IMG/VR virus record: IMGVR_UViG_3300031133_000383
Span: 373,044-437,043 of that record
DNA from: a virus
Lineage: Duplodnaviria; Heunggongvirae; Uroviricota; Caudoviricetes
Reading direction: 5' to 3' (one strand)
Length of the DNA: 64,000 nt
Position 1 is the stretch's first letter, and every line of letters begins with the position of its first letter. Shown piece by piece: positions 2,057 through 48,187 of this stretch. The notes below the pieces were generated by a model. It saw nothing but the letters and a program-made list of their open reading frames with translations, did no database searches and had not been told where the DNA came from. The position numbers were made by a program, and so were the translations under genes.

Positions 2057-2085
2057 TTGACTGTAAACCATCATTTTGATAATAT
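2057..2085 (+). promoter_or_regulatory. sigma70-like promoter of tRNA/ncRNA operon
   Basis: TTGACT-17bp-TAATAT with extended TG. Confidence 0.75.
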
Positions 2086-2096
2086 AGTCACATCAA

Positions 2097-2180
2097 GCCC
2101 GAGTGGTGGAATGGTAGACGCGGTGGATTCAAAATCCTCTGTCGAAAGACGTGCCGGTTCGAGTCCGGCTTCGGGCACCA
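2097..2180 (+). tRNA. tRNA-Leu(CAA)
   Basis: Cloverleaf, long variable arm, loop TTCAAAA, encoded CCA. Confidence 0.95.
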
Positions 2181-2195
2181 AATTTATATTTTAAC

Positions 2196-2340
2196 TGTTG
2201 AAAAGAGATGCTGTGCTAATACCAGTGTGGCAGTAGAGGTGGTGACCTATTACTTTATTGCATGATGTTAGCAGGGTTATGAAAGTCACTATAATAGTTA
2301 AGGGTTGGTAGTAATGCATTTTCAATCTCTCTATGCATTA
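2196..2340 (+). ncRNA. structured ncRNA family A, copy 1 (unassigned)
   Basis: Tandem paralog at 2369-2520 with compensatory stem changes. Confidence 0.7.
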
Positions 2341-2368
2341 TGACTTTTATTGTTGGTAAGGTTTCAAT

Positions 2369-2520
2369 TGTCGAAAAGAGATGCAGTGGTAACACCCAAG
2401 CGGTGATAGAATTGGTGACCTATTATTTTATCACACGATGTTGCCATTAGTCAGGAAAGTCACTATAACAATTGAGACAGCAGTAGATGTGTTGTGTGCT
2501 TTAAATCTCTTTGTACACTG
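2369..2520 (+). ncRNA. structured ncRNA family A, copy 2 (unassigned)
   Basis: Shares GAAAAGAGATGC, GGTGACCTATTA, GAAAGTCACTATAA and AATCTCT with copy 1. Confidence 0.7.
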
Positions 2521-2568
2521 CATGCTGGACTACTGATTTGTAACGCAGGTTTTTATCCCTGCATTCTA

Positions 2569-2655
2569 TTTTGTTTAGGCTTGTAGCTCAGATGGTAGAG
2601 CGGAGGGCAGAAACCCTCGCGTCGGAGATTCGATTTCTTCCTCGCCTAGACAAAA
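2569..2655 (+). ncRNA. tRNA-Phe-like RNA with 6-nt anticodon loop, extended acceptor stem, no CCA
   Basis: Canonical D and T arms; GAGGG-CAGAAA-CCCTC; paralog at 16119. Confidence 0.7.
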
Positions 2656-2811
2656 TTTTTTATTTTTAATCAATCAAAGATGACAGCTATTTGAACTCTG
2701 GATTGGTGTAATGATTTTTTTCAACAACCTTGAGCTTGATGTTTTCAAAAAAGAAATCATGGTTAAAAATCTTGACTTCTTTAGCATCTGATGCTAATAT
2801 AACCACACAAA

Positions 2812-2895
2812 GCCCGAGTGGTGAAATGGTAGACGCGGGGGACTTAAAATCCCCTTCCTTACGGAGTGCCGGTTCGAGTCCGGCCTCGGGCACCA
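2812..2895 (+). tRNA. tRNA-Leu(TAA)
   Basis: Cloverleaf, loop CTTAAAA, CCA. Confidence 0.95.
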
Positions 2896-2903
2896 AATTT
2901 TAT

Positions 2904-2977
2904 TTCTCGTTAGTTTAACGGTAGAACAGCGGCCTCTAAAACCGTGTATGCGGGTTCGAATCCCGCACGAGGAACCA
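2904..2977 (+). tRNA. amber suppressor tRNA (anticodon CTA)
   Basis: GCGGC-CTCTAAA-ACCGT anticodon arm; intact D, T and acceptor arms; CCA. Confidence 0.85.
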
Positions 2978-2984
2978 GTATCAT

Positions 2985-3061
2985 GGGACTTTAGCTCAGT
3001 TGGTTAGAGCGTCCGACTCATAATCGGCAGGTCGTAGGTTCAAGTCCTACAAGTCCCACCA
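2985..3061 (+). tRNA. tRNA-CAT, probably Ile2 (lysidine type)
   Basis: Loop CTCATAA; paired 1-72; body resembles bacterial tRNA-Ile2. Confidence 0.85.
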
Positions 3062-3138
3062 AATTATCAAAAATTGTCTATATATTGTATATTTCCTTTA
3101 ATCAGGACAATTTGTTGCTACATCCTCTGAGGTGCCAA

Positions 3139-5492: not shown

Positions 5493-5664
5493 GAATTCTC
5501 TGTTATTTATGAATACATATTGAATTTTTAAGAGGATGGGAAAAATATCTTGACCTTTAGTAAAAATCTTGATATTATTATAGGTATTAAAGCCTACAGC
5601 AGGTTTCCTATGGAGTATGCTAAGTGTTTAATGCATACAACTAACTGTTACTGCTGTTTATTTT

Positions 5665-5738
5665 GCGGAATTGGTCTAGTGGTTGGGCCGTAGCCTTCCA
5701 AGCTACAGAGACGAGTTCGATCCTCGTATTCCGCTCCA
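5665..5738 (+). tRNA. tRNA-Gly(TCC)
   Basis: Loop CTTCCAA, U73, CCA. Confidence 0.92.
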
Positions 5739-5895
5739 AATTTCAACAATGTGGTGGTAAAACAGCCCTATCTAAAAAAAATAAATATCCGATGAATAAT
5801 TAAAGCCTCTAAAAGAGGCTTTTTTATTGTCTTTAGTCTTCTTCTATTATATATTATATGTTAATATTATCATCTATTTTCATAGGCATTTAAAA

Positions 5896-6915
5896 ATGGC
5901 AACAACATTCTTTCACTTTTTATTTTACTTTTTATTTCCAGAATATGTAAAATTCAACAAGATTAAATACAAAGTACGTCGAAAATTTACATTTACAAAG
6001 GTTATTTATTATGCAAAATTTGATAATTATTTTTTGAAAATTTCATATTCATATGTAGATGTTATTAAATCTATTTTTTTCAAAAAAGATTTTGAAAATT
6101 TAAATTTTTGTCTTTGGTATAAAGATATTTGCATTACACGAGTTAATTTGAAACATACTTATACAAGTATCTTTGTTAATAATTATGATATTATTTTTTA
6201 CTCTATACAATATTTAAATGATTTTATTAGTTGTTTAGAGCAAAATGTAACATCTGATAACTTATTGGAAATTTGTAATCAATTAATCGATATTCCTTCA
6301 CCTGAGTTTATTATGTTTACATTTTACTATCAAAACTCTTATTCAATACGGTTTCCAAGTTATTCTAATGTCCCATTTTTCGGTTCAGTTTCAGACACTG
6401 AATCTTTTCATGATTTATGTGTTCTTATTTATGATAAATTTATTTATTTTAATAACTTTGAATCATTAAATAATAAAGATACCGTAGTAAAAGCTATGAA
6501 AGTATATCAAACATTGCAGACAATTTATTCTAAATACTCCATATCTGTCAATCGTTTTTCTAGACCTGAGAGTGGTCTTGTATTTCTAACATGTATCAGT
6601 TATGGTTCAACAGATGTATCTACAAATGATTTTTTAATTTTAGATTTAGATAACAAAACAGGTATTCTGTTTATCAATTTTTGGAGCGATAGCTACCTCT
6701 TTAATGTTGGTTTTACTTCCTCATCTTTACCTGAATTAGTTCGTCTTGTTATGCAGTATCATGCTGGCGTTTATTTGATGATAAATAAATCACCTATTAT
6801 TGAGAATAGTGAAAAGCCTTATTTTTATAGTAATTTTAATAGTGAGTTCGATTATAAATTTGATAAGATGGATGACTCAATGTTAGATATAATTCAAATG
6901 ATGCATTTAAAATGA
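5896..6915 (+). CDS. hypothetical protein, C-terminal signature group
   Basis: Long F/Y/N-rich ORF; ends IIQMMHLK. Confidence 0.75.
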   Translation: MATTFFHFLFYFLFPEYVKFNKIKYKVRRKFTFTKVIYYAKFDNYFLKISYSYVDVIKSIFFKKDFENLNFCLWYKDICITRVNLKHTYTSIFVNNYDIIFYSIQYLNDFISCLEQNVTSDNLLEICNQLIDIPSPEFIMFTFYYQNSYSIRFPSYSNVPFFGSVSDTESFHDLCVLIYDKFIYFNNFESLNNKDTVVKAMKVYQTLQTIYSKYSISVNRFSRPESGLVFLTCISYGSTDVSTNDFLILDLDNKTGILFINFWSDSYLFNVGFTSSSLPELVRLVMQYHAGVYLMINKSPIIENSEKPYFYSNFNSEFDYKFDKMDDSMLDIIQMMHLK

Positions 6916-6986
6916 AATTTTCAAATTTTTAACAAGTCTTTCTTAATATGTTGACTTTAGTTAATATCTACTGTATTATTGCGTCT

Positions 6987-7082
6987 TATTGGATTGAGAT
7001 GACGCTGAAATCGCCTCACAGAAAGGGCAGATCATCTTGTGGTATAGCGGCGATTGAATGGGTTCGAGGCCCATGTCCGATA
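6987..7082 (+). ncRNA. tRNA-like RNA (acceptor stem + T arm, no D stem or anticodon arm)
   Basis: TATTGGAT/GTCCGATA stem, ATGGG-TTCGAGG-CCCAT T arm, AATCGCC/GGCGATT helix; promoter at 6951. Confidence 0.55.
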
Positions 7083-7219
7083 CTGAATTGAATGATTTAG
7101 ACATTTGGTTTAAATCGTAATTATATAGAAGCATAAACAAAAAAAATAAGCACCACATACTTTTTATTAGGAAAATGGTGCTGTATTTTAAACTATAATT
7201 TTTTAATCTTGGAAAATAT

Positions 7220-7867
7220 ATGATTATAGAAAATGATGTCGTAAATTATATAGATTCTTACTTTAAAAAAAAGTTTAAAAATGTCAAATTGTATAATCCT
7301 ACCGTCACTTTATTTTCATCGTTACAAAATCAGGACGCACCTCATCGGTCTTATTCAGCTAAAATGACTATCGATGATAAACCTATAAATTTCTTAGTCT
7401 ATTATACTTTAAAAGATAATGAAGAAGGTGTTTTGTATCTAAACTCTATTAAAGTTAGTTTTATTAAGCAAGATATTAATCTTGTACTAAGTTTTATTCG
7501 CTCTATGGGACAATTAAAAAACTCTTCTGTTTTGGAAGATGTTAATACTTATCTCCTTAATATCTATAATTCAAATCTTCCACAAAAAATCAATATCAAC
7601 TTTCTTCAAAATTTTCATTTAAATAATATTCTTGTTCATAATGAAATCCGCATATACGACCTAAAAGATAACTTATCAGAAAATGAACATTCTGATTTTT
7701 TGATTGCTACTCATATTGGTCGTAAAAGTTCCATTTTAACTGATTTATCTTTGCCAGCTTTACCAAAATACGGTTCTGCAAATGTAGATGAAATCAGAAG
7801 CTTCCTTGATGCCTACCAGATTATAAAAAACGAAATTTTTGAATTGTTTAAGATCAACAGTTATTAG
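7220..7867 (+). CDS. hypothetical protein, C-terminal signature group
   Basis: 215 aa; ends LFKINSY. Confidence 0.75.
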   Translation: MIIENDVVNYIDSYFKKKFKNVKLYNPTVTLFSSLQNQDAPHRSYSAKMTIDDKPINFLVYYTLKDNEEGVLYLNSIKVSFIKQDINLVLSFIRSMGQLKNSSVLEDVNTYLLNIYNSNLPQKININFLQNFHLNNILVHNEIRIYDLKDNLSENEHSDFLIATHIGRKSSILTDLSLPALPKYGSANVDEIRSFLDAYQIIKNEIFELFKINSY

Positions 7868-8094
7868 TTTATTCATATGCTATTGAAATTATCCATTTAA
7901 GAACACCGAAAAGATTGTTGTCTTTTTCTATATTTTTTGGTATAATTACTTCCTATTCAAAGAGGAATGACCATTATGAACAAGATTATTTCTGCTATTG
8001 TTTTTGCACTGGCTTTTTCATCTTTCAATGCTAATGCAATGATTGATGTTTCGGACAAAAAATAAACCGTCACCTAATTCAAGAGGCACTACTA

Positions 8095-8568
8095 ATGTCA
8101 AAATCTATTCAGACAGCATCCACTATTGCTGATATGACTTATGAACAGAAAATTGAATATTTCTTATTTGATGATGGTTCTGTTTCCGGTCTGCGTTACA
8201 AAGAGCGTAGTAAATTTTGGAGAAGCATGGGGTTGTGGGAGGGTGGTTATTTTCCTGAACTGCATCAGGTTGCCTTGAAACTCATGATGTATAAGGGTAA
8301 TAAAGACAACCTTGATCAGACTATTAACTCGATCTCTGATATTTTACCTTTTCTGAAAGAATATCAAGGCATCAAACAGTTGGGTGTTTTTGAGCACACT
8401 CTTTCTGAAAATGGTCGATTCATTGTCGAGATTTCGGCATCGTCATATGAATTGGTTCTTTATCGCTATCATCGTCGCAGCGTTATAAAAGCATTTGATG
8501 ACTTGCGTTCTTTGGTTGAATATGTTCAAGAATATCATTACTATGAAAATTCTATGATTGCAGAATGA
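8095..8568 (+). CDS. hypothetical protein
   Basis: GAGG RBS, 157 aa. Confidence 0.8.
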   Translation: MSKSIQTASTIADMTYEQKIEYFLFDDGSVSGLRYKERSKFWRSMGLWEGGYFPELHQVALKLMMYKGNKDNLDQTINSISDILPFLKEYQGIKQLGVFEHTLSENGRFIVEISASSYELVLYRYHRRSVIKAFDDLRSLVEYVQEYHYYENSMIAE

Positions 8569-8588
8569 TTTAACAGTGCAAAAAACTG

Positions 8589-8696
8589 TTGACGTGTAGA
8601 TGTTTTTTTGATACTATAGCTTTATTGAAACAGCGAAACAACCAGCTAAAAAGTTTTGAAAAAGATGTTGCTAAGGTTTGTGTTTTGTGTTAGAAT
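8589..8696 (+). promoter_or_regulatory. tandem sigma70-like promoters upstream of ncRNA family B / tRNA-Cys
   Basis: TTGACG-17-TACTAT and TTGCTA-17-TAGAAT. Confidence 0.7.
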
Positions 8697-8715
8697 GACA
8701 GCATGAAATGAATAC

Positions 8716-8845
8716 GGAGCCTGTCAGCGAACAGGTTGGGTGGTAGCGGTGTCGCGGGCAAGCCATCACAGTGAAAGTTACATTGATGCAGGGGTTGCAT
8801 TGATTAAAACGATTGGGCGAATCGGTTTCTTTCACAACTTAATTT
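8716..8845 (+). ncRNA. structured ncRNA family B, copy 1
   Basis: Three paralogs with covarying stems. Confidence 0.75.
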
Positions 8846-8889
8846 GATAATAGGTAGTAGTTGTTGTACTGTCTAGTTTGAAGAGATAT

Positions 8890-9019
8890 GGAGCCTGTCT
8901 ACAAGCAGGTTGGGTGGTAGCGGTGTCGCGGGCGAACCATCGACGTGAAAGATTCATTGATGCGGGGAAGGCATTGATTAAAACGGTTAGGTGGACCGGC
9001 TTCTTTCACAACCTAATTT
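8890..9019 (+). ncRNA. structured ncRNA family B, copy 2
   Basis: Tandem paralog directly before tRNA-Cys. Confidence 0.75.
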
Positions 9020-9021
9020 AT

Positions 9022-9095
9022 GGCTGCTTGGCAGAATGGTCATGCACCGGATTGCAAATCCGAGTATGGGGGTTCGATTCCCTCAGCAGCCTCCA
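9022..9095 (+). tRNA. tRNA-Cys(GCA)
   Basis: Loop TTGCAAA, U73, CCA. Confidence 0.93.
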
Positions 9096-9100
9096 ACACA

Positions 9101-9127
9101 AAAGACTTCTTCGGAAGTCTTTTTTTT
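9101..9127 (+). terminator. intrinsic terminator
   Basis: AAAGACTTC-TTCG-GAAGTCTTT + T run. Confidence 0.85.
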
Positions 9128-9250
9128 ATTTCAATATATACACAGTATGAATACATATAATTTAATAAATGTTCATTTGTAATTGTATATTGTCATTCTC
9201 ATGATTCTTTGCTATAATAGCCTTAGCTTATCAATGGTTTGAGGGATTCC

Positions 9251-9769
9251 ATGGACTTTACAAATATCGACAAAATTGATCATCAGTTCATTCAGGCCCA
9301 TGAACTTAAATCTGCCGATCTTCTAAAATACCTTTTTGGAGAGCTTACAGAAATTTCTCTCTATTATCCTGATTTTTATGCATGGCTGACCAACACAGTT
9401 ATGCCCGGTTTGATTTCAGGAGAACGTAGCATTATTCTTGAGCATCGTCATGGCGAATTGGCAGGGGTTGCGATCTTGAAGGATAGTGTTGATGAGCAAA
9501 AGTTATGTTGTCTGCGAGTCATTCCTAAATTTCAGGGTATAGGCATTGGCTTGAAACTGTTTGAGAGATCTTTTAATGAGCTTGACACTGATAAACCTCT
9601 TTTATCTATTGCAGAGGAAAACACTCATAAATTTAAAAAGATTTTAGCTTATTATGGATTTCAACTGGAAGAAGAGTATTCTGATCTTTATCGCCTGAAT
9701 AAGACTGAATTTAGTTTCAATGGCGTCTTGCTTGTTCCTAAAGAAAAAAAATGGAATATTGATCAATGA
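9251..9769 (+). CDS. GNAT family N-acetyltransferase
   Basis: LRVIPKFQGIGIGLKLF acetyl-CoA motif A; YYGF motif B. Confidence 0.85.
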   Translation: MDFTNIDKIDHQFIQAHELKSADLLKYLFGELTEISLYYPDFYAWLTNTVMPGLISGERSIILEHRHGELAGVAILKDSVDEQKLCCLRVIPKFQGIGIGLKLFERSFNELDTDKPLLSIAEENTHKFKKILAYYGFQLEEEYSDLYRLNKTEFSFNGVLLVPKEKKWNIDQ

Positions 9770-20005: not shown

Positions 20006-20168
20006 GGAGCCTGCGTGAAAGTGGGTTGGGTAGCAGCGGTGTTGCGGGCGAGCTACTACGAAGAGTGAGTCAGAAGCTGTGATTCCTCTTCATGGGAATG
20101 GAGAATTGAAGTGTTGTTGGCTTTGATTAAAACGGCTGGGTGAGTCGGCTCCTTCCCAAACCTAATTT
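20006..20168 (+). ncRNA. structured ncRNA family B, copy 3 (with insertion)
   Basis: Shares GGAGCCTG, GGTTGGGT, AGCGGTGT-GCGGGC, TTGATTAAAACG, TAATTT; promoter TTGCTA-17-TAAAAT at 19944. Confidence 0.75.
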
Positions 20169-20174
20169 AGTTGG

Positions 20175-20445: not shown

Positions 20446-20575
20446 TATATTAAAGCAATCTGTTCAAAACAGGTTGCTTTTTTTTATAAAAATCATAGTT
20501 AATTGTTAGTTTTCTTGTTTTTATTTTCTGCTTATGGTATAATCAATTTCCAATCTCTTACTAGGATTACTTATT

Positions 20576-33124: not shown

Positions 33125-33153
33125 TTGCCAAGGAAGATAGTTTTAGGTATTAT
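33125..33153 (+). promoter_or_regulatory. sigma70-like promoter of minigene array
   Basis: TTGCCA-17-TATTAT; very similar promoter at 42686. Confidence 0.75.
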
Positions 33154-33209
33154 AGACACATAAAGCGGCAAGCAAGAAACCTAATGAAAACAATGATTTA
33201 AAGTAGATA

Positions 33210-33537
33210 AAGTGCCAGAGGTGAGCTACCAATGCAGTAATCGTCTAAAATTAGAGAACTTATTTATTATTGAATTTAGAAAAAACTTTAACTCAAAAAA
33301 CCTATTAAAAATTAAGTCTAGAGGTGGCTAAAAATGTAAAACTAATCCAATATTAGATGACTACTATTAGATAAGATTATGAATTTATTAACCTTTAAAT
33401 TAAAATCAATACAAGTGCTCGGAGGTGAGCCAGACATGCAGTAATTAACTAAAATATATAACTTTAGACTAATTAAACATAGATGAAAGATGAGATAGAA
33501 AATCAAAACGGTGCGGTCTTACCAAATGACAATTTAA
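33210..33537 (+). other. array of Shine-Dalgarno + start-stop minigenes (MQ*, M*, MQ*, MTI*)
   Basis: GAGGTG(A) 7-8 nt before ATG at 33232, 33334, 33436 (102-nt period); weaker unit at 33526. Confidence 0.7.
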
Positions 33538-33571
33538 CGTCTCCCACCTAATGATTGTCAAGTGTCAAAAG

Positions 33572-33598
33572 AAAGACCTAGCGATAGGTCTTTTTTTT
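33572..33598 (+). terminator. intrinsic terminator closing minigene array
   Basis: AAAGACCTA-GCGA-TAGGTCTTTTTTTT. Confidence 0.88.
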
Positions 33599-33727
33599 AT
33601 TTAAATTTCTACATTGAAATTTTCTTTCAGAATCAGAAAATGATTGTTATCCTATTGAATTTTTGGTATTATAATCATCTTGAAGCAGCCTTTACGTAAA
33701 TCATCAACCACCAAAAGGAGACTTATT

Positions 33728-33742
33728 ATGCTAAGGTTTTAA
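33728..33742 (+). promoter_or_regulatory. 4-codon leader ORF (MLRF)
   Basis: AAGGAG RBS; equivalent uORF at 42769. Confidence 0.6.
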
Positions 33743-33762
33743 ACTTAACAAGGTAAATTCAT

Positions 33763-34092
33763 ATGAGCAAAACAGTTAGACGCAAATCAGTAAACATCAG
33801 CTTCAAAAAAGGCTACCTCTTCGATATCAGCGATGTAGCTGTTAATGGACTGGTAGATTGCCGTTGGTGTCCTTCATTCAATGGCCTGTCACTCAAAGAG
33901 GCTAATGCTAAAAAAATCAATTGGTTCCATTCCTGCAAAGGCCCAAGCGAACGCTACTGCCCCGGAAAAGGATACCGCCAAAAGTACAGGGCTAAGAGCA
34001 AACATCAACTCATCCGACAGTTGAAAGTGCTCGAAGACTACGAAGCCGTTCAAATCGACAAGGTTTGCTCGGATCATGAGTTCTGGTCATAA
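33763..34092 (+). CDS. basic phage protein, paralog of 42804
   Basis: Shared WFHSC.GPS..YCPGK.YRQ.YRAKSK. Confidence 0.88.
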   Translation: MSKTVRRKSVNISFKKGYLFDISDVAVNGLVDCRWCPSFNGLSLKEANAKKINWFHSCKGPSERYCPGKGYRQKYRAKSKHQLIRQLKVLEDYEAVQIDKVCSDHEFWS

Positions 34093-34639: not shown

Positions 34640-35194
34640 AATACTTGAAATGATTTCTTTTTATGCTATAATTACTCATACATAAATTGAAGGCATCATG
34701 ACAATGATTGTGTTGCCTAATGAGTGGAATCCATAGGAATATCAGTTTTAGCAGACCGTTTCTGTCCTATGGTTAAAAAATGGAATGTTGTTGTTCAAGT
34801 TTGCCTTTTTTCTTGTCCAACAGTTTACTATCTGGCACAATAATATTAGCCTTAAAAATCTGCAGTGATAGCATTGTATTTCAGGAGGCTATCATGTTTT
34901 TTTCAGTTATCTACTTGAATCAACAAGATTAGATGCTATACTGACTGGAAAGTTTAATGCTGGTTGTTCCACCAATCAGTACCGAACGTCAGGTCTATAT
35001 TAAATGGCAGAGTATCGCCGCCTGATCTCTTTTTTATGATGAAAGGCATCTTGGACTTCGGTTCTGGATTAAAACGGTTGGGTGAACTGGCCTTTTATCT
35101 CATTCTTCTAACCATAAGTGTCACTACTTATGGTTTTTTTATTGCTTATTTTTTTGTTTTTTGATACACTCTCATTATCTAATTTGAGGATACC

Positions 35195-35614
35195 GTGATG
35201 ACACCTAAATTGCAAATGTTGTGGGACGAACTTGAAAAATTCCTTCGTGATGAAAATCAGCGTCTTCAACAATTCAATAATCTTGAACATCAACCTCGTA
35301 AAGCTGGGGCGGGATCTCTTATTTTTAATCGTAGCCCGAAAACGCAGCTAGTTTTGGGATGGAGTCACTATGACTATAATCATTCTCAAACAACTTACAA
35401 TTTGTGTTTGCAGATTGGTTCTGCAACAAAAAATGCATTGACTAATTATGAGGCAACTCTTAAATCAATAATGTCTTTGCCATCAATTTCTCATTTTGAA
35501 AAAGTAGAACGCTTTGAGAGTGTCACACATGTTTATGATGCAGGTAAAGCTGTCAGTATCATTGCTAAATCAGAGGGTAGTAATTTTTATTGGATTGGGA
35601 TTAAACATTCATGA
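35195..35614 (+). CDS. hypothetical protein
   Basis: GAGG RBS. Confidence 0.75.
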   Translation: MMTPKLQMLWDELEKFLRDENQRLQQFNNLEHQPRKAGAGSLIFNRSPKTQLVLGWSHYDYNHSQTTYNLCLQIGSATKNALTNYEATLKSIMSLPSISHFEKVERFESVTHVYDAGKAVSIIAKSEGSNFYWIGIKHS

Positions 35615-36396
35615 TTGATTCGCTGTTTGCAAAAATTGATACCATAGAAAAGGCACAAGATCCTGCTTTTCTGTCTATACTCTTTGAAAAACTGATTTTA
35701 CTGCTTGAAACAGTCGGTTTAAATAATAATTATGAATACCACGATTTCAATTTTAAGCCTAAGAAAAAAATAGATGTAGACAAACAACGGTTTGTCATCA
35801 GTTTTCCAGAAGGCATTATTTTTGTAGGTTATCAACAATATTCAGTACAGAAATTTTCTGTTGTTCTTGGTATCAACAATAATGCTCATACTGATTTGTC
35901 CAAACTTAATTGGTCTATTCACAGTCGTAAATGTTCAATAACTGTCGCCGTAAATAACGATCTTGAATATGAAAGCATGTTTATTCATAACAGGCTTAAT
36001 TTTAGGTTGGAATCAATAAATCCGTTTGATGATTATGTTTCTTGTTTTGATGCAGAATACCATTATGATAAAAACCTTAATGTAAAAAAGAAATTTAAAT
36101 TTAGAGAAATGGAACGTTATGATGATATTAGTTTTATTTTTGAATTAACATTACCGCCTATCTTTTATACGAATAATATTCAATTTGAAAATCATTTCTT
36201 TTCTTTTATGGATGCATTTGAAAAAAATAATCCACTCTTAAAAGAGCTTTTTCCCTTTATTCCTGATTTTTCTACTATTTTACATGACCATTCTGCTTTT
36301 AATGATATGTGTTTTACTTTTGCTGAAAGATATGAAGATACACGCTCAGATTTTTTTAATAATATATTGGTGTTTGAAATGAGTACTTTTGTATGA
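35611..36396 (+). CDS. ~255-aa paralog family member
   Basis: FEK, LPPIFY, FP motifs; ends FEMSTFV. Confidence 0.85.
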   Translation: MIDSLFAKIDTIEKAQDPAFLSILFEKLILLLETVGLNNNYEYHDFNFKPKKKIDVDKQRFVISFPEGIIFVGYQQYSVQKFSVVLGINNNAHTDLSKLNWSIHSRKCSITVAVNNDLEYESMFIHNRLNFRLESINPFDDYVSCFDAEYHYDKNLNVKKKFKFREMERYDDISFIFELTLPPIFYTNNIQFENHFFSFMDAFEKNNPLLKELFPFIPDFSTILHDHSAFNDMCFTFAERYEDTRSDFFNNILVFEMSTFV

Positions 36397-37166
36397 CCAT
36401 GATTGAAGTCTTCAGTAAAATAAAAACAAAAGAAGATATTTCACCCGATGTGAAACGATTTGTTTTTGAGAAATTCTTAACATTGATGCAGGATGCTGGT
36501 TTTATTGTAGACTATTTATTTGATGACTTTAAAATGTTGTGGATCGGTTCGCTTCCATATACTTTAGGTTTTTTATGTCCATTTAAAGATGGCCTTCTTA
36601 AAATTGGCTATCATGCATTAGAACAAAATTTTAATGTTCAACTAACCATCAATCCAAAAACTAAATTATCAAAACCCCTTTTTATGATTGATGACATGTC
36701 ATCATCAAGCATTTATTTGCAAGTAGATAACGATTTTAATTTTAAATCCATTAATTTCTCTTATCGGATATGTTTTGAAGATGAAGTTGGTTCTGTAGAC
36801 TCAGACGGAGCTTTTTTAGATATTGATTACACTTATGACCATGTATCACCTCCTTTAAAAGAATTCAAAATCTGTCAATATTTTACAAGTATTGATAGTA
36901 ATGATTGTGACCATTCATTAAAGCTTCCACCCATCTTTTATAAGAATGATTTAGATTTCGATCATTTATTTTTTGACTATATCTCTAATTTTACTAAAAA
37001 AGATTCTGTATTTAATACTGTGTTTCCCAATACACCTAGCCTTTATGATGTTATAAATGATCCTGCTGTTTTACAACAATTATGCATTCAATTTTCTAAT
37101 GATTACTATGATCATTATTCTGTATTGTGTGATCGTCTATTGGTTTTAAATATGAGTAAGATTTAA
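36393..37166 (+). CDS. ~255-aa paralog family member
   Basis: LPPIFY; ends LNMSKI. Confidence 0.85.
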   Translation: MTMIEVFSKIKTKEDISPDVKRFVFEKFLTLMQDAGFIVDYLFDDFKMLWIGSLPYTLGFLCPFKDGLLKIGYHALEQNFNVQLTINPKTKLSKPLFMIDDMSSSSIYLQVDNDFNFKSINFSYRICFEDEVGSVDSDGAFLDIDYTYDHVSPPLKEFKICQYFTSIDSNDCDHSLKLPPIFYKNDLDFDHLFFDYISNFTKKDSVFNTVFPNTPSLYDVINDPAVLQQLCIQFSNDYYDHYSVLCDRLLVLNMSKI

Positions 37167-37936
37167 TGATAACAATGACACTTTCTGTTTATTTGGGAAA
37201 AATTAAAAATCAAGATGATGTCGATTTTTATACTTCCATTATTTTCGAAAAGTTCATGAAATTTATGTCATTTACAGGATCTCCACCACCTTATACCATT
37301 AATGATTTTAATATTGTTTTTGAAAGAATTAATGGTCTTTCATTTAGATTGATGTGCTCTTTTCCTGATGGTAGATTAATAATTAATTACAATGGTGGCA
37401 TGCCCACTGTTAAGCTACAATTGAGCAGTATTCCCACTAATATGAAAGAACTGTTTATTTTAGATGATATAAACAATTTATTTGTCATGCCTTATATCGG
37501 TCCTGATTTAGATTTTAACGGTATCTATCTATCATATCGGTTTATGTTTAAACTTGTAGACAATCAAAATGAAGGAGTTATTTGTTATTTTGATGTTGGT
37601 TTTGATTATTCAAAATACCTAGATTTAAATCAAATTTTTAATTTTAATGAAGTACAAGACAATAAAAAATCGACTTGTGTATATCGCTTTCAAATGCCTT
37701 CCATATTTACTGCCAGAGACTTAAAATTCAACTATACATTTCTTAAATTTTTAAAAGCCTTAGCACTTGATAAACAATCTTTTGAACTTGCATTTCCAGA
37801 ATATCCTAGATATGAAGAGTTTATGTTTGATCATACTGTTTTCAAAAAGATATGCTTAGCATTTTCAGATGACTATCAATCTGATTCTCCCACTATCTCT
37901 GATAAATTTTATTTATTTAGCATGTTAAATGTTTAG
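37166..37936 (+). CDS. ~255-aa paralog family member
   Basis: MPSIF, FPEYP; ends FSMLNV. Confidence 0.85.
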   Translation: MITMTLSVYLGKIKNQDDVDFYTSIIFEKFMKFMSFTGSPPPYTINDFNIVFERINGLSFRLMCSFPDGRLIINYNGGMPTVKLQLSSIPTNMKELFILDDINNLFVMPYIGPDLDFNGIYLSYRFMFKLVDNQNEGVICYFDVGFDYSKYLDLNQIFNFNEVQDNKKSTCVYRFQMPSIFTARDLKFNYTFLKFLKALALDKQSFELAFPEYPRYEEFMFDHTVFKKICLAFSDDYQSDSPTISDKFYLFSMLNV

Positions 37937-41581: not shown

Positions 41582-42577
41582 ATGGCAAAAATCTTAACAG
41601 GAGATAGACCAACAGGTTCACTTCATCTTGGTCATTTTGTCGGTTCCTTACGCAATCGTGTTGAACTGCAGCATTTACACCAGCAAACCATTTTGATTGC
41701 TGATAATCAGGCGTTGACTGACAATATGGGGAATCCTATAAAAGTCCGTGATAACGTCATTGAAGTTGCCAAAGACTATCTAGCGTGTGGCATCGATCCT
41801 ACTAAGACAACGATTTGTGTCCAGTCACATCTACCAGCTATTGCCGAATTGACAATGTTGTATCTCAACCTTGTAACCGTTTCTCGTTTAGAACGAAATC
41901 CTACCATTCGCGATGAGATTAAAGCCAAGAATTTTGAGCGAAGTATCCCCGCAGGCTTCTTGGCTTATCCAGTGGCTCAAGCCGCTGACATTACTGCATT
42001 CAAAGCCGATCTTGTCCCAGTGGGTGAAGACCAGCTTCCATTGATTGAACAGGCGAATGAAATCGTCCACAAGTTAAACACTCAGATAGGTTTTGAGATT
42101 GTTCCATCCATCAAAGCACTTACTTCAACAGTGGGACGACTACCAAGCCTTGATGGCAAGTCTAAAATGAGCAAATCGCTTGGTAATACGATCAATCTGT
42201 ACGCAAGCATGAAAGATATTCAAAAAGCCGTTAATTTGATGTTTACTGACAGTAGTCATCTTCGTGTACAAGATCCCGGCCAAGTGGAAGGTAACGTGGT
42301 GTTTACCTACCTTGATGCGTTTGATCCTGATGTGAATGAGGTGGCTAATCTGAAAGAGTTCTATCAACGTGGTGGATTAGGTGATGGCACTTTGAAAAAG
42401 CGGCTGGTGGGAGTTTTAGAGACTGTTATTGCTCCTATCCGAGAACAAAGACTGTTGCTAAATACTCAGCATGATTTTGTACTGGATGTGTTGAAGCAAG
42501 GCACAGCGAAAGCCCAACTAGAAACGCATCAAAACGTCAATGAAATTAAAGATGTTTTTGGTTTTTTCAAATTTTAA
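41582..42577 (+). CDS. trpS: tryptophanyl-tRNA synthetase
   Basis: TGDRPTGSLHLGH (HIGH), VPVGEDQ, KMSKS. Confidence 0.97.
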   Translation: MAKILTGDRPTGSLHLGHFVGSLRNRVELQHLHQQTILIADNQALTDNMGNPIKVRDNVIEVAKDYLACGIDPTKTTICVQSHLPAIAELTMLYLNLVTVSRLERNPTIRDEIKAKNFERSIPAGFLAYPVAQAADITAFKADLVPVGEDQLPLIEQANEIVHKLNTQIGFEIVPSIKALTSTVGRLPSLDGKSKMSKSLGNTINLYASMKDIQKAVNLMFTDSSHLRVQDPGQVEGNVVFTYLDAFDPDVNEVANLKEFYQRGGLGDGTLKKRLVGVLETVIAPIREQRLLLNTQHDFVLDVLKQGTAKAQLETHQNVNEIKDVFGFFKF

Positions 42578-42674: not shown

Positions 42675-42768
42675 CCAAAAAACGCTTGCCATAATATCCA
42701 AAATTAGGTATTATGGCTATCTCAACAATACAGACACATTTATTAATCATCCTAAAAGGAGAAAGCCC

Positions 42769-42783
42769 ATGTTTATTATTTAA
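42769..42783 (+). promoter_or_regulatory. 4-codon leader ORF (MFII)
   Basis: AAGGAG RBS; ends TAAACTTAA like the 33728 uORF. Confidence 0.6.
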
Positions 42784-42803
42784 ACTTAATAGAGGATATA
42801 AAT

Positions 42804-43127
42804 ATGAGCAGGACAATCCGTCGCAAAAAGAATAATTTCGTCAACCTCTTCTTGCTGAGCGAAAGGGATTTGAACGAACATGGTCGGGTCGAGGGTCACT
42901 GGGATAAAGCACTGGCTGGTTTGACCTTGGAAGAAGCCAACAAGAAAAAAATGCAGTGGTTCCATTCCTGCAGCGGCCCAAGCTTCGACTACTGCCCCGG
43001 AAAAGCTTACCGTCAGGAATACCGGGCGAAAAGCAAACAGCAACTCAGGGAGCAATTGAACGTGCTCGATGATTACGAAGCGGTAGCCATCGACAAGATC
43101 TGCAACGACTGGCGTTACTGGATGTAA
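42804..43127 (+). CDS. basic phage protein, paralog of 33763
   Basis: MSRTIRRK; shared C-terminal half; GC-richer codons. Confidence 0.88.
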   Translation: MSRTIRRKKNNFVNLFLLSERDLNEHGRVEGHWDKALAGLTLEEANKKKMQWFHSCSGPSFDYCPGKAYRQEYRAKSKQQLREQLNVLDDYEAVAIDKICNDWRYWM

Positions 43128-43696: not shown

Positions 43697-44479
43697 ATGG
43701 ATTTTAAAACTTATATAAAAAGGTTTAATCATGATGGAGTAAACAATTTTCCAATAAAATTTCATGGTGTCATGACAGAGAAGCTGGTCGAGCTTCTTAA
43801 ATGTGTATGTAAAATCGATCTTTCTATGATGTCTCCTGATGATGAGTGTTATTTTAAATTTGATAGTGATTTCAAACAACATCATGTCGTTAAATATCAT
43901 TTTAACTATACAGGTGACGATGTTGGTGAGGCGGAAGCATTGATTGGCGTCAGTGGCGACCGATTTTTTGTATCATTTCGTTTTTATAAAAAGGAAAAGC
44001 ATCCAAGTCTTCCAGCGGGAGCCTATTGTGTAGATGTTGATGTAGATGATCAGTTTCAATATATATCTGCAGAATTTGAGATTCGTTATGATTTCGGGCT
44101 AAAATCAAATAACAATAAGCATCGGGCTACTTTATTTTTTTACAAAGTCCTCGATAAAAATTTTAAACTAAGCACAGTGATTAGTTGCAGAAACCTAAAT
44201 AGCCATAAAACACATACTTTGCTTAAAACAAAAGATCTTCCCGCTTTATTCTTTGAAAACGACCATCACTTTTATGATACATTGAAAGAAATGTTAGAGT
44301 ATTGCGAAATGCAACCGAATTTATTCTATTCTGTATTCTCAGAATATCCAGAGCATATAGAACTAGTGTCCAGTAGTAAAGCTGTTAAAAAGTTTCTGAC
44401 TTTATACCATGATCAATTTACAAATGATTCTTCGATTTTAGACGCAAGGCTGCTATTACTTGAAATGAAGGATATTTAA
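43697..44479 (+). CDS. ~255-aa paralog family member
   Basis: CKIDLS, FSEYP; ends LLEMKDI. Confidence 0.85.
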   Translation: MDFKTYIKRFNHDGVNNFPIKFHGVMTEKLVELLKCVCKIDLSMMSPDDECYFKFDSDFKQHHVVKYHFNYTGDDVGEAEALIGVSGDRFFVSFRFYKKEKHPSLPAGAYCVDVDVDDQFQYISAEFEIRYDFGLKSNNNKHRATLFFYKVLDKNFKLSTVISCRNLNSHKTHTLLKTKDLPALFFENDHHFYDTLKEMLEYCEMQPNLFYSVFSEYPEHIELVSSSKAVKKFLTLYHDQFTNDSSILDARLLLLEMKDI

Positions 44480-44480
44480 G

Positions 44481-45224
44481 ATGTCTACTATTTATAAAGA
44501 ACTCACTACCGTTAAAACAATTAATAATAACCCTAACATTCAAAAAAAACTTGTTGATATATTTAAAATAATTTGTGATATTGACCTTTCACATGAAGAA
44601 ACCCCTTTCATATTTGATGGGGGTTCATTACGTAAAAAGATTGTTTATAACTATAAGTTTAAATATGGCGTTGCATATGTTGAAACTTATGAACAAGAAA
44701 TGCGTGTAATCTTTGTTTTTAATAATTCTGAAAATCTCGTCATTCCATTTAATATACCTCTGCGTTCTAGTCGTTGTGTAGTTCAAGTCGATCATGACTT
44801 GAATTTTATAGACGGACGATTCGGGTTTTTTACCTCTTTTTCAAATAAAAATAGCGAAGAAAAAGAATCTGGCTATATTTTACTTTGTTTTGAAAGTATC
44901 AATAATGGGACTATGTGGTATAATCAGGTCTCTTACAGTAATACTGTATTAGAAGAAAAAATAGGTTTACAGCCTTCTAGTATTGATGAAATTTACTCAA
45001 TCCCAAATGACGAATTTGAACAAATTTTTATCAAATTTATGACATACTGTTCGAAAAATACAGAATATTTTTATAATGTTTTTAGTGAATACCCTAAATG
45101 TAAGTATATAGTTGAGAATATTAACGAATTAATTATATTTTTAAATTTATTAAGCCAACAATATGTTGAGAACCCAACACTTTTAAAATCACGTATACTT
45201 TTATTGACCATGCAGGTAATTTAA
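44481..45224 (+). CDS. ~255-aa paralog family member
   Basis: CDIDLS, FSEYP; ends LLTMQVI. Confidence 0.85.
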   Translation: MSTIYKELTTVKTINNNPNIQKKLVDIFKIICDIDLSHEETPFIFDGGSLRKKIVYNYKFKYGVAYVETYEQEMRVIFVFNNSENLVIPFNIPLRSSRCVVQVDHDLNFIDGRFGFFTSFSNKNSEEKESGYILLCFESINNGTMWYNQVSYSNTVLEEKIGLQPSSIDEIYSIPNDEFEQIFIKFMTYCSKNTEYFYNVFSEYPKCKYIVENINELIIFLNLLSQQYVENPTLLKSRILLLTMQVI

Positions 45225-45226
45225 TT

Positions 45227-45985
45227 ATGAATGTTTATGACAGACTCTTAGAAATAAATGATTCAAATGATTTAATTACCAAGATGGAAGATGAAATCAC
45301 TCAAAAATTATCAAAATTACTATACGATTCCTGTAATATAGATTTATCTAATATTGATGTCTCATTCAAGCAAAAAGAAATTAGTCGTCGTGATGGTATT
45401 GACATACATATTAAGTATGTAGCCGGATTCGTGCAAGCGACACTTTCGCTATTACCAGCAGAAAATAAATTAGAAGTTGAATTTTTTTTATCCAAGAATT
45501 CATGTAGTAAACAGTTTAACCATAAAGCCAGAGAATACTGTCTGGATGTTGACCATGAACTTGTGTTGAAAAGAACAAAATTCAACAATAACTTTCTGTT
45601 CATAAAAGAAAAATCCAATCAGGTTTTTCATATTCTTCTCAGTGTTGAAACGTGTATAGTTGATAAAAATAATTTTTCTAAAAAATTTGAGTGGACCGAT
45701 CACCAATTTAATTCAGCAAAAAAAAATTTGAAAGATTTTGGATTAAGTGCTTATTTCTATCACAATAATCAACCTTTTGAAGATCTATTGACATTTTTCT
45801 TGTTTAATGCGGCGAATCATTCTTTACTGTTTTTTGAGTTATTTGATGAATATCCAAATGCTATTGATTTAACCCATTCTATTGAAAAGATGGTTCAATT
45901 TCTAGAACTATTTAAACATCAATATCTAAGTGATCCTGATTTACTCAAATCGAGAATTCTATTAATGAAAATGAACACAATCTAA
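45227..45985 (+). CDS. ~255-aa paralog family member
   Basis: CNIDLS, FDEYP; ends LMKMNTI. Confidence 0.85.
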   Translation: MNVYDRLLEINDSNDLITKMEDEITQKLSKLLYDSCNIDLSNIDVSFKQKEISRRDGIDIHIKYVAGFVQATLSLLPAENKLEVEFFLSKNSCSKQFNHKAREYCLDVDHELVLKRTKFNNNFLFIKEKSNQVFHILLSVETCIVDKNNFSKKFEWTDHQFNSAKKNLKDFGLSAYFYHNNQPFEDLLTFFLFNAANHSLLFFELFDEYPNAIDLTHSIEKMVQFLELFKHQYLSDPDLLKSRILLMKMNTI

Positions 45986-46158
45986 TTTATATAATATGTT
46001 TTATTGATATAAAGGTCTTGTCGTGATATGATACTGGCTCATATACATGACCTACAATACATGCTGATAAAAAAATCAGACATGCTTAAAAAAGAGTTTA
46101 AAGATAATAAAGAAAAATTGAAAGTATAATTTATTTTAAAATTATTAAGGAGTGAATT

Positions 46159-47259
46159 TTGTTTAATTTATTTAAGATGTTTAAGTCAAAAACCAATTTC
46201 GATGGGTTCTCTTGTGATGATGTCTTCGTTGGTGAACAACAAATGCCTTTTGATACTGGTATTTCCTTTTTATATACCTGTTATTTTTCTGACTATTACA
46301 TAGCATTTGAATACAAGAAATATACTTCTTCTTCTAACATTTTAGGTATCAGCACGCTTTCATATCAAAACACTGTTATCTATAGAGAACAACATAATTT
46401 AAATTTAAGCAATCTTAGTATTAGTGATTATTTGAAACAAAGTTTCAAAAAGATAATTAATTATGCAAGAAAATTCGATACAAATCATTTAAATATTATT
46501 TTACCTTTTTTTAAAACTGAGTCGGTATTTCAAACTAAAAGTCTTGAACTTATGTTAACATCAACTTATCCCAGATGCTTTATATATACAGTATCTCTAA
46601 TGCAAGCACATGGAGCCAAGTATAATTCTTTTTTAAATAGAACCAGCAGTTCTAATATCCATAGGTTTCCTGTTATTAGTTACGATAATAAAGTGTTTGA
46701 TTGCTTATCTCCCGGTGATTACCGTCATCTTGCAAGACTTAACCAAGATAGAATTTACCAAATAGATGATATATCAAGTCAAATTAAGAAAACTCTTGAT
46801 GATACCACATTTACTGTTCATGCTTATGACAATCAGTATACTCATGTTTTCTTGAATACTGCTGATGCATCCACGCTTTTTTATGGCGTGATCAATTCAC
46901 AAAAAGAATATTATCCTTCTCATTTAAAAGAAGATGATGACTTTTTCAACGATATTTCTTTGCATGTTTTTTGGATGGTTAACTTTGAAAATAGAACAAC
47001 AGCACTTAATATTTTTATTTATGATGATGATAAATTAATTGAAGAATATAGTCATTCAATGGACACTAAATTTGAAGGGGATCTTATTGATTTAGAATAT
47101 TATTCTAAATTCTTTCAGGAAACCCTATCAAAATTAGTACATTGTTATTATCCAAATAGAAAATTAATAGAACTTTTAAACAATGAATTAAGCCTTGATG
47201 AAATTGAAGACAGACTAACCGAAGAGCAATACCATTTGTTTAAAATGATTACAATCTAA
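46159..47259 (+). CDS. hypothetical protein, C-terminal signature group
   Basis: AAGGAG RBS with TTG start; ends LFKMITI. Confidence 0.8.
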   Translation: MFNLFKMFKSKTNFDGFSCDDVFVGEQQMPFDTGISFLYTCYFSDYYIAFEYKKYTSSSNILGISTLSYQNTVIYREQHNLNLSNLSISDYLKQSFKKIINYARKFDTNHLNIILPFFKTESVFQTKSLELMLTSTYPRCFIYTVSLMQAHGAKYNSFLNRTSSSNIHRFPVISYDNKVFDCLSPGDYRHLARLNQDRIYQIDDISSQIKKTLDDTTFTVHAYDNQYTHVFLNTADASTLFYGVINSQKEYYPSHLKEDDDFFNDISLHVFWMVNFENRTTALNIFIYDDDKLIEEYSHSMDTKFEGDLIDLEYYSKFFQETLSKLVHCYYPNRKLIELLNNELSLDEIEDRLTEEQYHLFKMITI

Positions 47260-47343
47260 TAAGGATTTTTCAAATTTAAAATCAATGGCAATTCTCTTAG
47301 CTTTCTGTTATACTTTACATCTCATTTTAATGGATCTTTTACT

Positions 47344-47838
47344 ATGAATCAACTGGTGTGCTTGCTTAAAACGTTGAAATCTTTGAAGTTGAATGTTCAT
47401 ACTGAAATGCCATCGGTGGACGATTTTCAATTATTGATTGGCACTGATAGGTGCAGTCTTGCGGCTCATCATATTCGTAAAGAAATTCACTATCACCACG
47501 AACACAATAAACTGACAGATGACACCCATCAAATCCAGCTTCTCAAAATGATTCACAATCAGGTCATTGATAAGGGCATTGCTCATCAGCGAGAGTATTT
47601 CGATAGTCTTTTCGAAATCATTCATTCAAATGATGAGTTGAAACCTATTTTCCTGTATCATGAATTTAAAAACAGTGGTTACAAACTAAATCAACCAGAG
47701 CATTACGAAAAATTTTTGAAAATGACACGTAAGCTTAATGCAAAAGAATTTAAAGATAAAGAACTTATCATTTTCCTTTGTGCCAAAATTCTTGAAACTT
47801 ATGATGAAATCAATAAAATGAAATCTCAATATATGTAA
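47344..47838 (+). CDS. hypothetical protein
   Basis: 164-aa ORF. Confidence 0.75.
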   Translation: MNQLVCLLKTLKSLKLNVHTEMPSVDDFQLLIGTDRCSLAAHHIRKEIHYHHEHNKLTDDTHQIQLLKMIHNQVIDKGIAHQREYFDSLFEIIHSNDELKPIFLYHEFKNSGYKLNQPEHYEKFLKMTRKLNAKEFKDKELIIFLCAKILETYDEINKMKSQYM

Positions 47839-47850
47839 AGTATAATCATA

Positions 47851-48187
47851 GGAAAGCCTTTGGATAGCTGTCAATTAAAGGCGTATCATACCAAGCTCGC
47901 TTAATTATTCATTGGCTACACGACATTCCAGAACATTCGCTTATTGTTGTCCATTGTTGATCGGGTATTTCCCGATCAGCCGCTGTTGTTAAGTTTATGC
48001 CGGACATCCTTGGTTACCCATTAGATCCTGCTCCATTTTTAGATGTGATTACCACTTGATGAACAGACACGTTTATGATAAACTATTGACTGTATATCAG
48101 TCTATGGGGAAATAAGCATGAAACGTGGCACTTATATCGCCAGTCGAGCAAGTTTACCAGAACGATCAGAGGCGTGGAGAAAACTAC
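47851..48187 (+). ncRNA. candidate ~330-nt structured ncRNA
   Basis: GC-richer, no long ORF, several stems, TATAAT at 47841; strand uncertain. Confidence 0.45.

Follow-up and report, generated by a model that had tools for sequence, protein, structure and literature searches.

A probable tRNA-punctuated stable-RNA island at the end of a giant AT-rich phage-like element

The final 64 kb of the 437,043-bp IMG/VR virus record IMGVR_UViG_3300031133_000383 (64,000 nucleotides, G+C ~32%; hereafter the window, in whose coordinates positions are given unless they are marked as genome positions) contain, between 2057 and 48187, a dense series of transfer RNA (tRNA) genes, tRNA mimics, structured RNAs, start-stop minigenes, basic proteins led by short upstream open reading frames (uORFs) and a tryptophanyl-tRNA synthetase (TrpRS). 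A previous sequence-only reading had seen in this stretch an RNA-heavy module aimed at the translation apparatus, in which tRNA operons serve as processing cassettes for RNAs that may act together in host takeover or counter-defence. The analysis described here points to a different organization, which we consider the probable one: a phage-like element that is AT-rich and giant (at least 437 kb) would carry, at window 2-21 kb, an expanded island of stable RNAs, built as a tRNA-punctuated mosaic.

With open reading frames (ORFs) of at least 50 codons counted as coding, the non-coding share reaches 27.5% in the window between 2 and 21 kb, compared with 10.5% in the genome upstream of the window. 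An alternative genetic code was ruled out. Under code 11, 86% of the 437-kb record falls into ORFs with 100 codons or more, so that the standard code fits, and TAG must be a stop, since it terminates 32 (12%) of 274 long ORFs, alongside TAA (165) and TGA (77). ARAGORN detected 26 tRNA genes in the whole record, 12 of which lie in the window; eleven of these are canonical and the twelfth is the aberrant mimic M2. Within 2-21 kb, at least seven sigma-70-type promoter-to-terminator units are predicted to make RNA, not protein, their layout being read from the sequence and from consensus-based promoter and terminator predictions.

These units, all on the plus strand, combine tRNAs and other RNAs in several ways. 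The first starts at a promoter-like site at 2057 (TTGACT-17-TAATAT (TG)) and comprises tRNA-Leu(CAA) (2097-2180), two copies of a structured RNA (A1 and A2) and the tRNA mimic M1. It is followed by a purely tRNA-encoding unit (2772-3061) with tRNA-Leu(TAA) at 2812-2895, a suppressor tRNA(CTA) at 2904-2977 and tRNA-Met(CAT) at 2985-3061, and by a stand-alone tRNA-Gly(TCC) (5665-5738) in a unit spanning 5550-5822 that ends in a terminator-like sequence at 5802-5822. Mimic M3 has its own promoter at 6951. Starting at 8589, the next unit contains B1, B2 and tRNA-Cys(GCA) (9022-9095), with a terminator-like sequence at 9100-9123, while the unit at 12069-12533 (TTGACA-17-TATACT (TG)) contains C1, tRNA-Pro(TGG) (12333-12410), an initiator-like tRNA(CAT) (12424-12502) and a terminator-like sequence. 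The longest RNA unit (15261-16222) encodes, in order, C2, tRNA-Asn (15523-15598), a 70-aa ORF (15626-15838), a second initiator-like tRNA(CAT) (15854-15930), a spacer (15931-16029), tRNA-Thr (16030-16105), M2 and a terminator. Finally, B3 and a tail RNA form a stand-alone unit at 19944-20480, closed by a terminator-like sequence at 20452-20480.

Within the predicted promoter-to-terminator units, eight to nine non-tRNA RNAs are thus 0-42 nt away from a tRNA or tRNA mimic; those in tRNA-containing units are A, B1/B2, C1/C2, the spacer and M1/M2. C1, C2 and B2 end 0-2 nt before the 5' end of a tRNA (C1 at 12332 and tRNA-Pro at 12333; C2 at 15522 and tRNA-Asn at 15523; B2 at 9021 and tRNA-Cys at 9022). 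The notion that several of these elements are driven by the strongest promoters in the window was overstated, since the two C promoters are the only ones among the eight promoter-like sites matching the consensus at 11 of 12 positions between 1.5 and 21 kb.

The three multicopy structured RNA families proposed from the sequence proved to be real, with two copies of A, three copies of B plus a diverged one, and two copies of C, all of them, as far as this genome is concerned, within the window. No Rfam family other than tRNA gave a match, either at the gathering score or at E≤1. Family B is the best documented. Its copies are located at 8708-8851 (B1) and 8882-9021 (B2) in the tRNA-Cys(GCA) unit, at 19998-20174 (B3) behind its own promoter-like site, and at 34971-35115 (B4, the diverged copy, 25.1 bits, E 0.002). 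In an alignment of 12 sequences from five genomes, fitted to the structure model and hence favouring structure, 98.4% of the cells are paired and 16 of 28 pairs are compensatory; none of 500 shuffles reached these values, and slid controls dropped to 22-49% paired. An additional long-range helix around the last two hairpins, recognized by eye, covaries likewise. Family B was not found in bacterial genomes. A role as riboswitch or cis-regulatory leader was rejected, as the next element downstream is another B copy, a tRNA or a terminator and the copies in relatives have their own promoters; a role as guide-scaffold RNA of a TnpB nuclease was also discarded, as no B match adjoins the TnpB gene.

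The two copies of family A (2186-2350, starting ~9 nt past the CCA of tRNA-Leu(CAA), and 2359-2540) are 75% identical, and 9 of their 46 pairs are compensatory; the minimum free energy (MFE) z-score of A1 is -2.1, with coding controls at -0.17 ± 0.8. Between the copies of family C (12098-12332, z -3.3, and 15290-15522, z -3.1), which share 83% identity, no more than 2 pairs are compensatory, but both copies fold far better than shuffled sequences. The predicted closing helix of C pairs its 5' part with its last bases, ~4 nt before the tRNA. Single-copy RNAs were also detected: the 99-nt structured spacer between the initiator-like tRNA(CAT) and tRNA-Thr (15931-16029, z -4.2), the 3' tail RNA after B3 (20175-20450), which is conserved in four relatives, and a weak candidate with its own promoter-like site (15148-15250, z 0.15), of which a core of 55-64 nt is conserved beside the B cluster of the relative G004. 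Searches of IMG/VR with exact or gapped patterns returned no match for homologues of A, C or the M elements, and short BLAST hits considered as such homologues turned out to be chance matches.

The existence of three tRNA mimics was likewise confirmed. M1 (2568-2656, with the Rfam tRNA match at 2577-2648) and M2 (16119-16194) score 40.4 and 31.4 bits, respectively, with the Rfam tRNA model RF00005, above its gathering score of 29, and M1 has an MFE z-score of -3.4. The two are 79% alike, and although all five pairs of the anticodon stem differ between them, all five still pair; the stem encloses a common 6-nt loop, YAGAAR (CAGAAA in M1, UAGAAG in M2). With this stem fully paired, neither mimic offers a readable triplet in a 7-nt anticodon loop with U33, and the only drawing that ARAGORN gives for M2 has an 8-nt loop and an anticodon of four bases. 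M1 has two acceptor mismatches and no CCA, and its flanks extend the outer helix to 13 bp, whereas M2 has one acceptor mismatch and a CCA. M3 (unit 6951-7085, RNA 6988-7085) also lacks a CCA; covariation in five genomes is seen in its acceptor stem and its T arm, the element is kept in four relatives, and its body can form two interleaved helices resembling a pseudoknot. With a 6-nt loop or no anticodon arm, the three elements are unable to decode and would therefore act at most as decoys. Other origins were considered. ARAGORN in its transfer-messenger RNA (tmRNA) mode found no tmRNA, and M3 had no match to the Rfam tmRNA model. For a derivation of M2 from a tRNA-Arg(TCT), the best match is a normal tRNA-Arg located after a tRNA-Thr in Acinetobacter phage ABPH49, but tRNA-Phe agrees more closely with M2 in the D loop, T loop, A73 and GAA, and this derivation was not retained. 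Intron-containing tRNAs, a conceivable source of long tRNA-like elements, were not found.

The canonical set consists of Leu-CAA, Leu-TAA, the CTA suppressor, three CAT, Gly-TCC, Cys-GCA, Pro-TGG, Asn-GTT and Thr-TGT, all with an encoded CCA. ARAGORN and the inspection of cloverleaves bore out the count of eleven, including a suppressor and two initiator-like tRNAs. The amber suppressor is carried by a genome with the standard code, and among annotated phage tRNAs it is closest to a tRNA-Trp and to mycobacteriophage suppressors. Both initiator-like tRNAs (12424-12502 and 15854-15930) have an unpaired 1:72 position, A1xA72, where the initiator tRNA of E. coli has C1xA72, and an A11:U24 pair in the D stem. 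According to the ARAGORN cloverleaves, both lack the run of three G:C pairs at the lower end of the anticodon stem, the stems reading c-g, t-a, a-t, g-c, c-g in one and c-g, c-g, a-t, g-c, t+g in the other. The acceptor stem of the tRNA at 15854-15930 presumably differs from that of E. coli tRNA-fMet at base 1 only.

The window tRNAs match the favoured codons of the element: Leu is most often encoded by TTA and TTG and Thr by ACA, and ATA accounts for 24% of Ile codons. This agreement, together with the frequency of tRNA islands in jumbo phages (56 tRNA genes in XacN1; PMC5852040), would fit an ordinary codon-supply island, in which the flanking RNAs are leaders or spacers that help to stabilize or process the transcript, without any function in trans. 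We regard this as unlikely, as B covaries strongly in five genomes and is also found at sites remote from canonical tRNAs, where it has a promoter and a terminator of its own, the structures of A, C and M are kept through compensatory changes, and multi-helix folds of 150-230 nt far exceed what a spacer needs.

The pattern search of IMG/VR for family B yielded five records, of which four were analysed whole (G001, G002, G004 and G005; 150-193 kb, 34% G+C). They are syntenic with genome positions 320-437 kb, with protein identities of 30-96%. Common to all four are B (two copies in each), M3, the tail RNA, tRNA-Cys, the uORF-led proteins, TrpRS and two RNA ligases (Rnl1 and Rnl2), and the minigene array is kept in two (G001 and G004). 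No copy of A, C or M1/M2 was found by nhmmer in these records of 150-193 kb, at least one of which was cut from a larger contig, and 10 of the 11 window tRNAs are missing from them, each record having only Arg-CCG, Leu-TAG and Cys-GCA. The co-occurrence expected of elements that act together is therefore not seen for part of the set, and joint action finds no support in the comparison. This division into a shared core and unshared parts argues for a mosaic with different evolutionary histories, not one co-inherited machine: the shared elements would represent an older core, and A, C, M1/M2 and the ten tRNAs would be lineage-specific additions.

Nevertheless, the association of tRNA-like folds with other RNAs is conserved in the relatives. 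Their B cluster follows an element of 100-122 nt with an acceptor stem, a T arm and a CCA (TLE-1) and, in G001 and G004, also a perfect cloverleaf of 71 nt that has a CCA and an anticodon loop of 6 nt and scores 34.2 bits with the Rfam tRNA model. In G001 these correspond to L043:7897-8021 and L043:8160-8233 (loop GUUGUA), respectively; both have counterparts in G004, and ARAGORN calls neither of them. TLE-1 did not qualify as a tmRNA, with 18.6 bits in G001 against a gathering score of 47 for the Rfam tmRNA model and a negative result in the tmRNA mode of ARAGORN. Similar elements are found elsewhere in the genome. A 66-nt tRNA-like element with CCA (genome 336249-336317) lies in a non-coding operon ~36.7 kb before the window, within a second RNA-dense zone (genome 330-337 kb, 26% non-coding), and is kept in all four relatives (G001 64714, G002 125541, G004 23335, G005 48531), and the Ser/Tyr tRNA cluster contains, at genome 260180-260268, a tRNA-like sequence of 86 nt that ARAGORN skips and that has an acceptor stem, a T arm and a CCA.

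How the island might be expressed can be proposed by analogy. In the tRNA operons of E. coli, RNase P and the 3'-end machinery set the RNA ends. Since the RNAs of the window lie within 0-42 nt of a tRNA or mimic inside shared units, host tRNA processing would release them. Canonical tRNAs would be co-transcribed with non-tRNA structured RNAs in five units, namely A1-A2-M1 after tRNA-Leu, B1-B2 before tRNA-Cys, C1 before tRNA-Pro, C2 before tRNA-Asn, and the spacer RNA and M2 around tRNA-Thr. Host RNase P would cut the 5' end of each tRNA, an endonuclease and 3' trimming would act past each encoded CCA, and these cuts could free A, B1/B2, C and the other flanking RNAs as discrete stable RNAs. 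The idea of tRNA operons as processing cassettes thus agrees with the anatomy of most RNAs and does not extend to B3, B4, M3 and the minigene array, which stand alone.

Several points weigh against a tRNA-punctuated island of this kind. The promoters and terminators are consensus matches only, and B3, B4, M3 and the array, each with its own promoter and terminator, need no tRNA; in the relatives, moreover, each B copy has its own promoter, placed between B and the upstream tRNA-like element. Families A and C are each known from two paralogous copies, to which a second sample, L061, being 98.8% identical, adds no covariation, and the lineage-specific status of A, C and M is judged within the span of the relative records given above. 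L061 is an 11-kb ENA contig (ERZ27247436) that corresponds to window 5821-16951; given its identity, the same element is present in an independent assembly.

The minigene array, the two uORF-led basic proteins and TrpRS were all confirmed. The array (33126-33600, plus strand) consists of a promoter, three start-stop units exactly 102 nt apart and a terminator. Each ATG (33232, 33334 and 33436) is preceded by a strong Shine-Dalgarno match of the GAGGTGA type, and the units, ATG CAG TAA, ATG TAA and ATG CAG TAA, contain no or one sense codon. The array is unusually unstructured, its fold being weaker than that of shuffled sequences (z +1.5). Two relatives, G001 and G004, keep it directly after TrpRS, with the same start-stop design and a variable sense codon. 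No peptidyl-tRNA hydrolase gene was found in the genome. The first basic protein (109 aa, 33763-34092) follows a 4-codon uORF encoding MLRF (33728-34092 together, plus strand); its paralogue (107 aa, from 42804) follows another 4-codon uORF, encoding MFII (42768-43127, plus strand), and the position of the uORF before the basic protein is kept in all four relatives. The 70-aa basic ORF of the longest RNA unit (15626-15838) has no detectable relationship to these proteins. It has homologues in the relatives, there too among RNAs. As a partner of the RNAs it was discarded: homologues also occur in the head-tail modules of ~45-kb siphophage contigs, between a DUF7370 gene and the tail terminator, and it is therefore a general phage protein.

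TrpRS (41582-42577, plus strand) matches Pfam PF00579 (tRNA-synt_1b; 2e-52, residues 3-277), and its sequence solidly supports assignment as a class I TrpRS; the nearest named cellular homologues are Acinetobacter enzymes with 69-72% identity. Across the element and its relatives TrpRS is 94-97% identical, compared with 30-85% for neighbouring proteins, a difference that suggests strong constraint or recent exchange. TrpRS and the array are located 20-30 kb away from the tRNA units, and the genes in between encode a transporter, a DsbA-like protein and ORFans.

Translation-related content is not confined to 2057-48187. Outside this stretch, the genome encodes the ribosomal protein bS21, HPF, a Thg1-like enzyme, a T4-type Rnl1 and an Rnl2-type ligase, in addition to the second RNA-dense zone. 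The translation genes of the element lie far apart in the 437 kb (at 61 kb, 119 kb, 355-364 kb and 414 kb) and do not form a module. The hypothesis of one integrated module, in which all elements jointly act on the ribosome or translation apparatus for host takeover, can draw on the clustering of elements within 46 kb, on these very genes and on the precedent of translation genes in huge phages (PMC7162821). We nevertheless hold it to be very improbable: the elements do not co-occur in relatives, the translation genes are dispersed, unrelated genes separate TrpRS and the array from the tRNA units by 20-30 kb, and none of the RNAs has a recognisable ribosome- or factor-binding motif.

The repair genes bear on another explanation. 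Rnl1 and Rnl2 are 69-75% conserved in the relatives, and the Pfam Rnl1 model matched none of 14 control cell genomes. Evasion of defences that target tRNAs has been proposed for phage tRNAs whose anticodon arms are altered (PMC10264068). Some of the window tRNAs, notably the variant initiators, also fit the replacement of host tRNAs lost to anticodon nucleases, and the Rnl1, Rnl2 and Thg1-like genes together with these variants make the reading as host takeover or counter-defence plausible, though it presupposes a phage, which is itself uncertain. In a full counter-defence kit, variant tRNAs would replace cut host tRNAs, the mimics would act as decoys or inhibitors of anticodon nucleases or other tRNA-binding host proteins, and Rnl1, Rnl2 and the Thg1-like enzyme would repair tRNAs. 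Consistent with this, the initiator-like tRNAs keep the 1x72 mismatch and A11:U24 while the anticodon stem is changed, the YAGAAR loop is kept in M1/M2 despite five compensatory changes in the stem, and an independent 6-nt-loop tRNA-like element with CCA exists in G001 and G004. However, plain codon supply also accounts for most of the tRNAs, the decoy role is pure inference, and families A, B and C are left unexplained. A kit of this type, which is compatible with the stable-RNA island, is a possibility that we put forward tentatively, at less than even chances; if true, it would give the parts a function.

The nature of the replicon itself deserves caution, as it may not be an ordinary phage. 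IMG/VR classifies the record as viral and CheckV estimates it as 98% complete. The 778-aa ORF, which matches phrog_33734, is 45% identical to proteins of the Xanthomonas jumbo phages XacN1 and Xoo-sp13, and phage-typical domains (ART-PolyVal, PBECR5, Rnl1 and Lar-like) are present. This ORF is also the longest (778 aa from the first ATG, 796 codons from stop to stop), no cellular core gene occurs among the 30 largest ORFs, and no close relative was found in GTDB genomes. These observations speak against the alternative that the replicon is not a lytic phage but part of a non-viral or partly viral element of more than 1 Mb, or an unbinned cell, in which case the RNA island would serve the element's own gene expression and not host takeover. 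That alternative, which we judge doubtful, draws its strength from the surroundings of the relatives and from missing genes. G002, a 179-kb IMG/VR 'provirus', is 100% identical over 5.2 kb (54623-59820, L074) to part of a 1,859,102-bp JGI contig, and proteins of both its edges are found on contigs of more than 1 Mb in four assemblies (L075-L078). Beyond the 'provirus' borders the DNA is rich in ORFans, with runs of ~250-aa paralogues, SIR2 and two FtsH-like proteins. In the 437 kb, Terminase_6N, Terminase_6C, Gp23, Phage_sheath_1 and RNA polymerase beta gave no Pfam match, a result limited to the models tried, which divergent or off-contig genes could escape; Terminase_6N had no Pfam match in the relatives either. 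Pfam and PHROGs detected no phage hallmark among the 30 largest ORFs, and ten large ORFans had no PHROG hit. Cell-type genes are present, including MCP, a TolC-like OEP, MFS and CDF transporters, a DsbA-like protein, an amidase, DnaK and LigA (examples in G000 at 85426-87084, 115723-117132 and 113040-114554). The host is probably Gram-negative and likely gammaproteobacterial.

Other features were noted in the window. Two runs of three tandem paralogous ORFs of ~250-260 aa each, with no Pfam match, occupy 35611-37936 and 43697-45985, and similar runs fill the flanks of G002 in large contigs. Directly upstream of the B3 promoter, a 75-aa Cys-rich ORF (19723-19950) weakly resembles the Lar restriction-alleviation family, with an E value of 4e-5 that does not reach the cut-off of the family. 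Directly after the described stretch begins a TnpB gene (48193-49605, minus strand; OrfB_IS605 and Cas12f1-like TNB domains), with at least two further TnpB genes elsewhere in the genome; the non-coding DNA at 47904-48121 is conserved in relatives without this TnpB, and it is exactly here that the records of G004 and G005 stop. A transposase (58682-59749, phrog_506) shares 96% identity with a copy that G002 has at a non-syntenic site, indicating an active insertion sequence common to the relatives.

What the non-tRNA RNAs of phage tRNA clusters do has been an open question since the discovery of T4 RNA C and RNA D. The element described here offers a richer, comparative case than T4, in which family B is backed by covariation in five genomes and tRNA mimics are held under structural selection although they do not decode. 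With 437 kb lacking recognisable virion genes and relatives in contigs of 1.3-1.9 Mb, it may also represent a kind of giant element. Its RNAs, mimics, variant tRNAs and minigene RNA are clonable candidates for asking whether phage-borne RNAs manipulate translation or tRNA-directed immunity. At its most far-reaching, a giant, possibly >1 Mb, element would keep non-decoding tRNA look-alikes and make new trans-acting RNAs that act on host translation: M1, M2, M3 and the 6-nt-loop element of the relatives would serve as dedicated ligands or decoys to which tRNA-binding proteins of the host (anticodon nucleases, modification enzymes or synthetases, for example) attach, tRNA punctuation would mass-produce A, B and C, and the start-stop minigene RNA would join in the action on translation. 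We offer this scenario as a long shot.

Some of these traits have counterparts in known systems. Viral and cellular RNAs of eukaryotes, such as the MHV68 TMERs and MALAT1-mascRNA, use tRNA-like folds to define the ends of neighbouring non-coding RNAs via RNase P or RNase Z. Those systems depend on RNA polymerase III or nuclear processing, whereas the units described here are of the bacterial sigma-70 type with intrinsic terminators. With jumbo and huge phages, known to carry translation genes (PMC7162821), the element shares a large AT-rich genome, tRNAs near the contig end (in XacN1 the 56 tRNA genes lie in terminal repeats; PMC5852040), an aminoacyl-tRNA synthetase, bS21 and HPF, and, with XacN1 and Xoo-sp13, the ORF that is 45% identical. 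It differs from them in having no virion or packaging gene by the Pfam models tried and in having relatives within contigs of more than 1 Mb; embedded structured RNAs were not found described for jumbo or huge phages in the literature searched. Minigenes are known to sequester tRNA as peptidyl-tRNA (PMC2490762), and those of the array resemble the lambda bar type in their strong Shine-Dalgarno sequence, AUG, 0-1 sense codon and stop; three units, a dedicated unstructured transcript and the exact 102-nt spacing set the array apart, and a toxicity via peptidyl-tRNA drop-off is putative, by analogy. The evading tRNAs of the T5 type (PMC10264068) likewise combine altered anticodon stem-loops with RNA repair enzymes. 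M1, M2 and M3 differ from them in being non-decoding and at most decoys, a role for which no description among phage tRNA-like genes was found in the literature searched.

The closest parallel is found in phage T4, where the tRNA-processing enzymes of the host set RNA C and RNA D free. Both are transcribed from the tRNA region, and their role is not known (PMC3014915). As with rnaC and rnaD, non-tRNA structured RNAs are encoded here inside tRNA units. The differences are that at least five RNA families are present, distributed over several separate operons, some in two to four copies and accompanied by three non-decoding mimics, that processing is proposed from layout, by analogy, and that neither a sequence nor an Rfam kinship to described RNAs was detected for the RNAs of the window. 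The island would represent a much enlarged variant of the T4-type arrangement of stable RNAs in a tRNA region, with several new RNA families.

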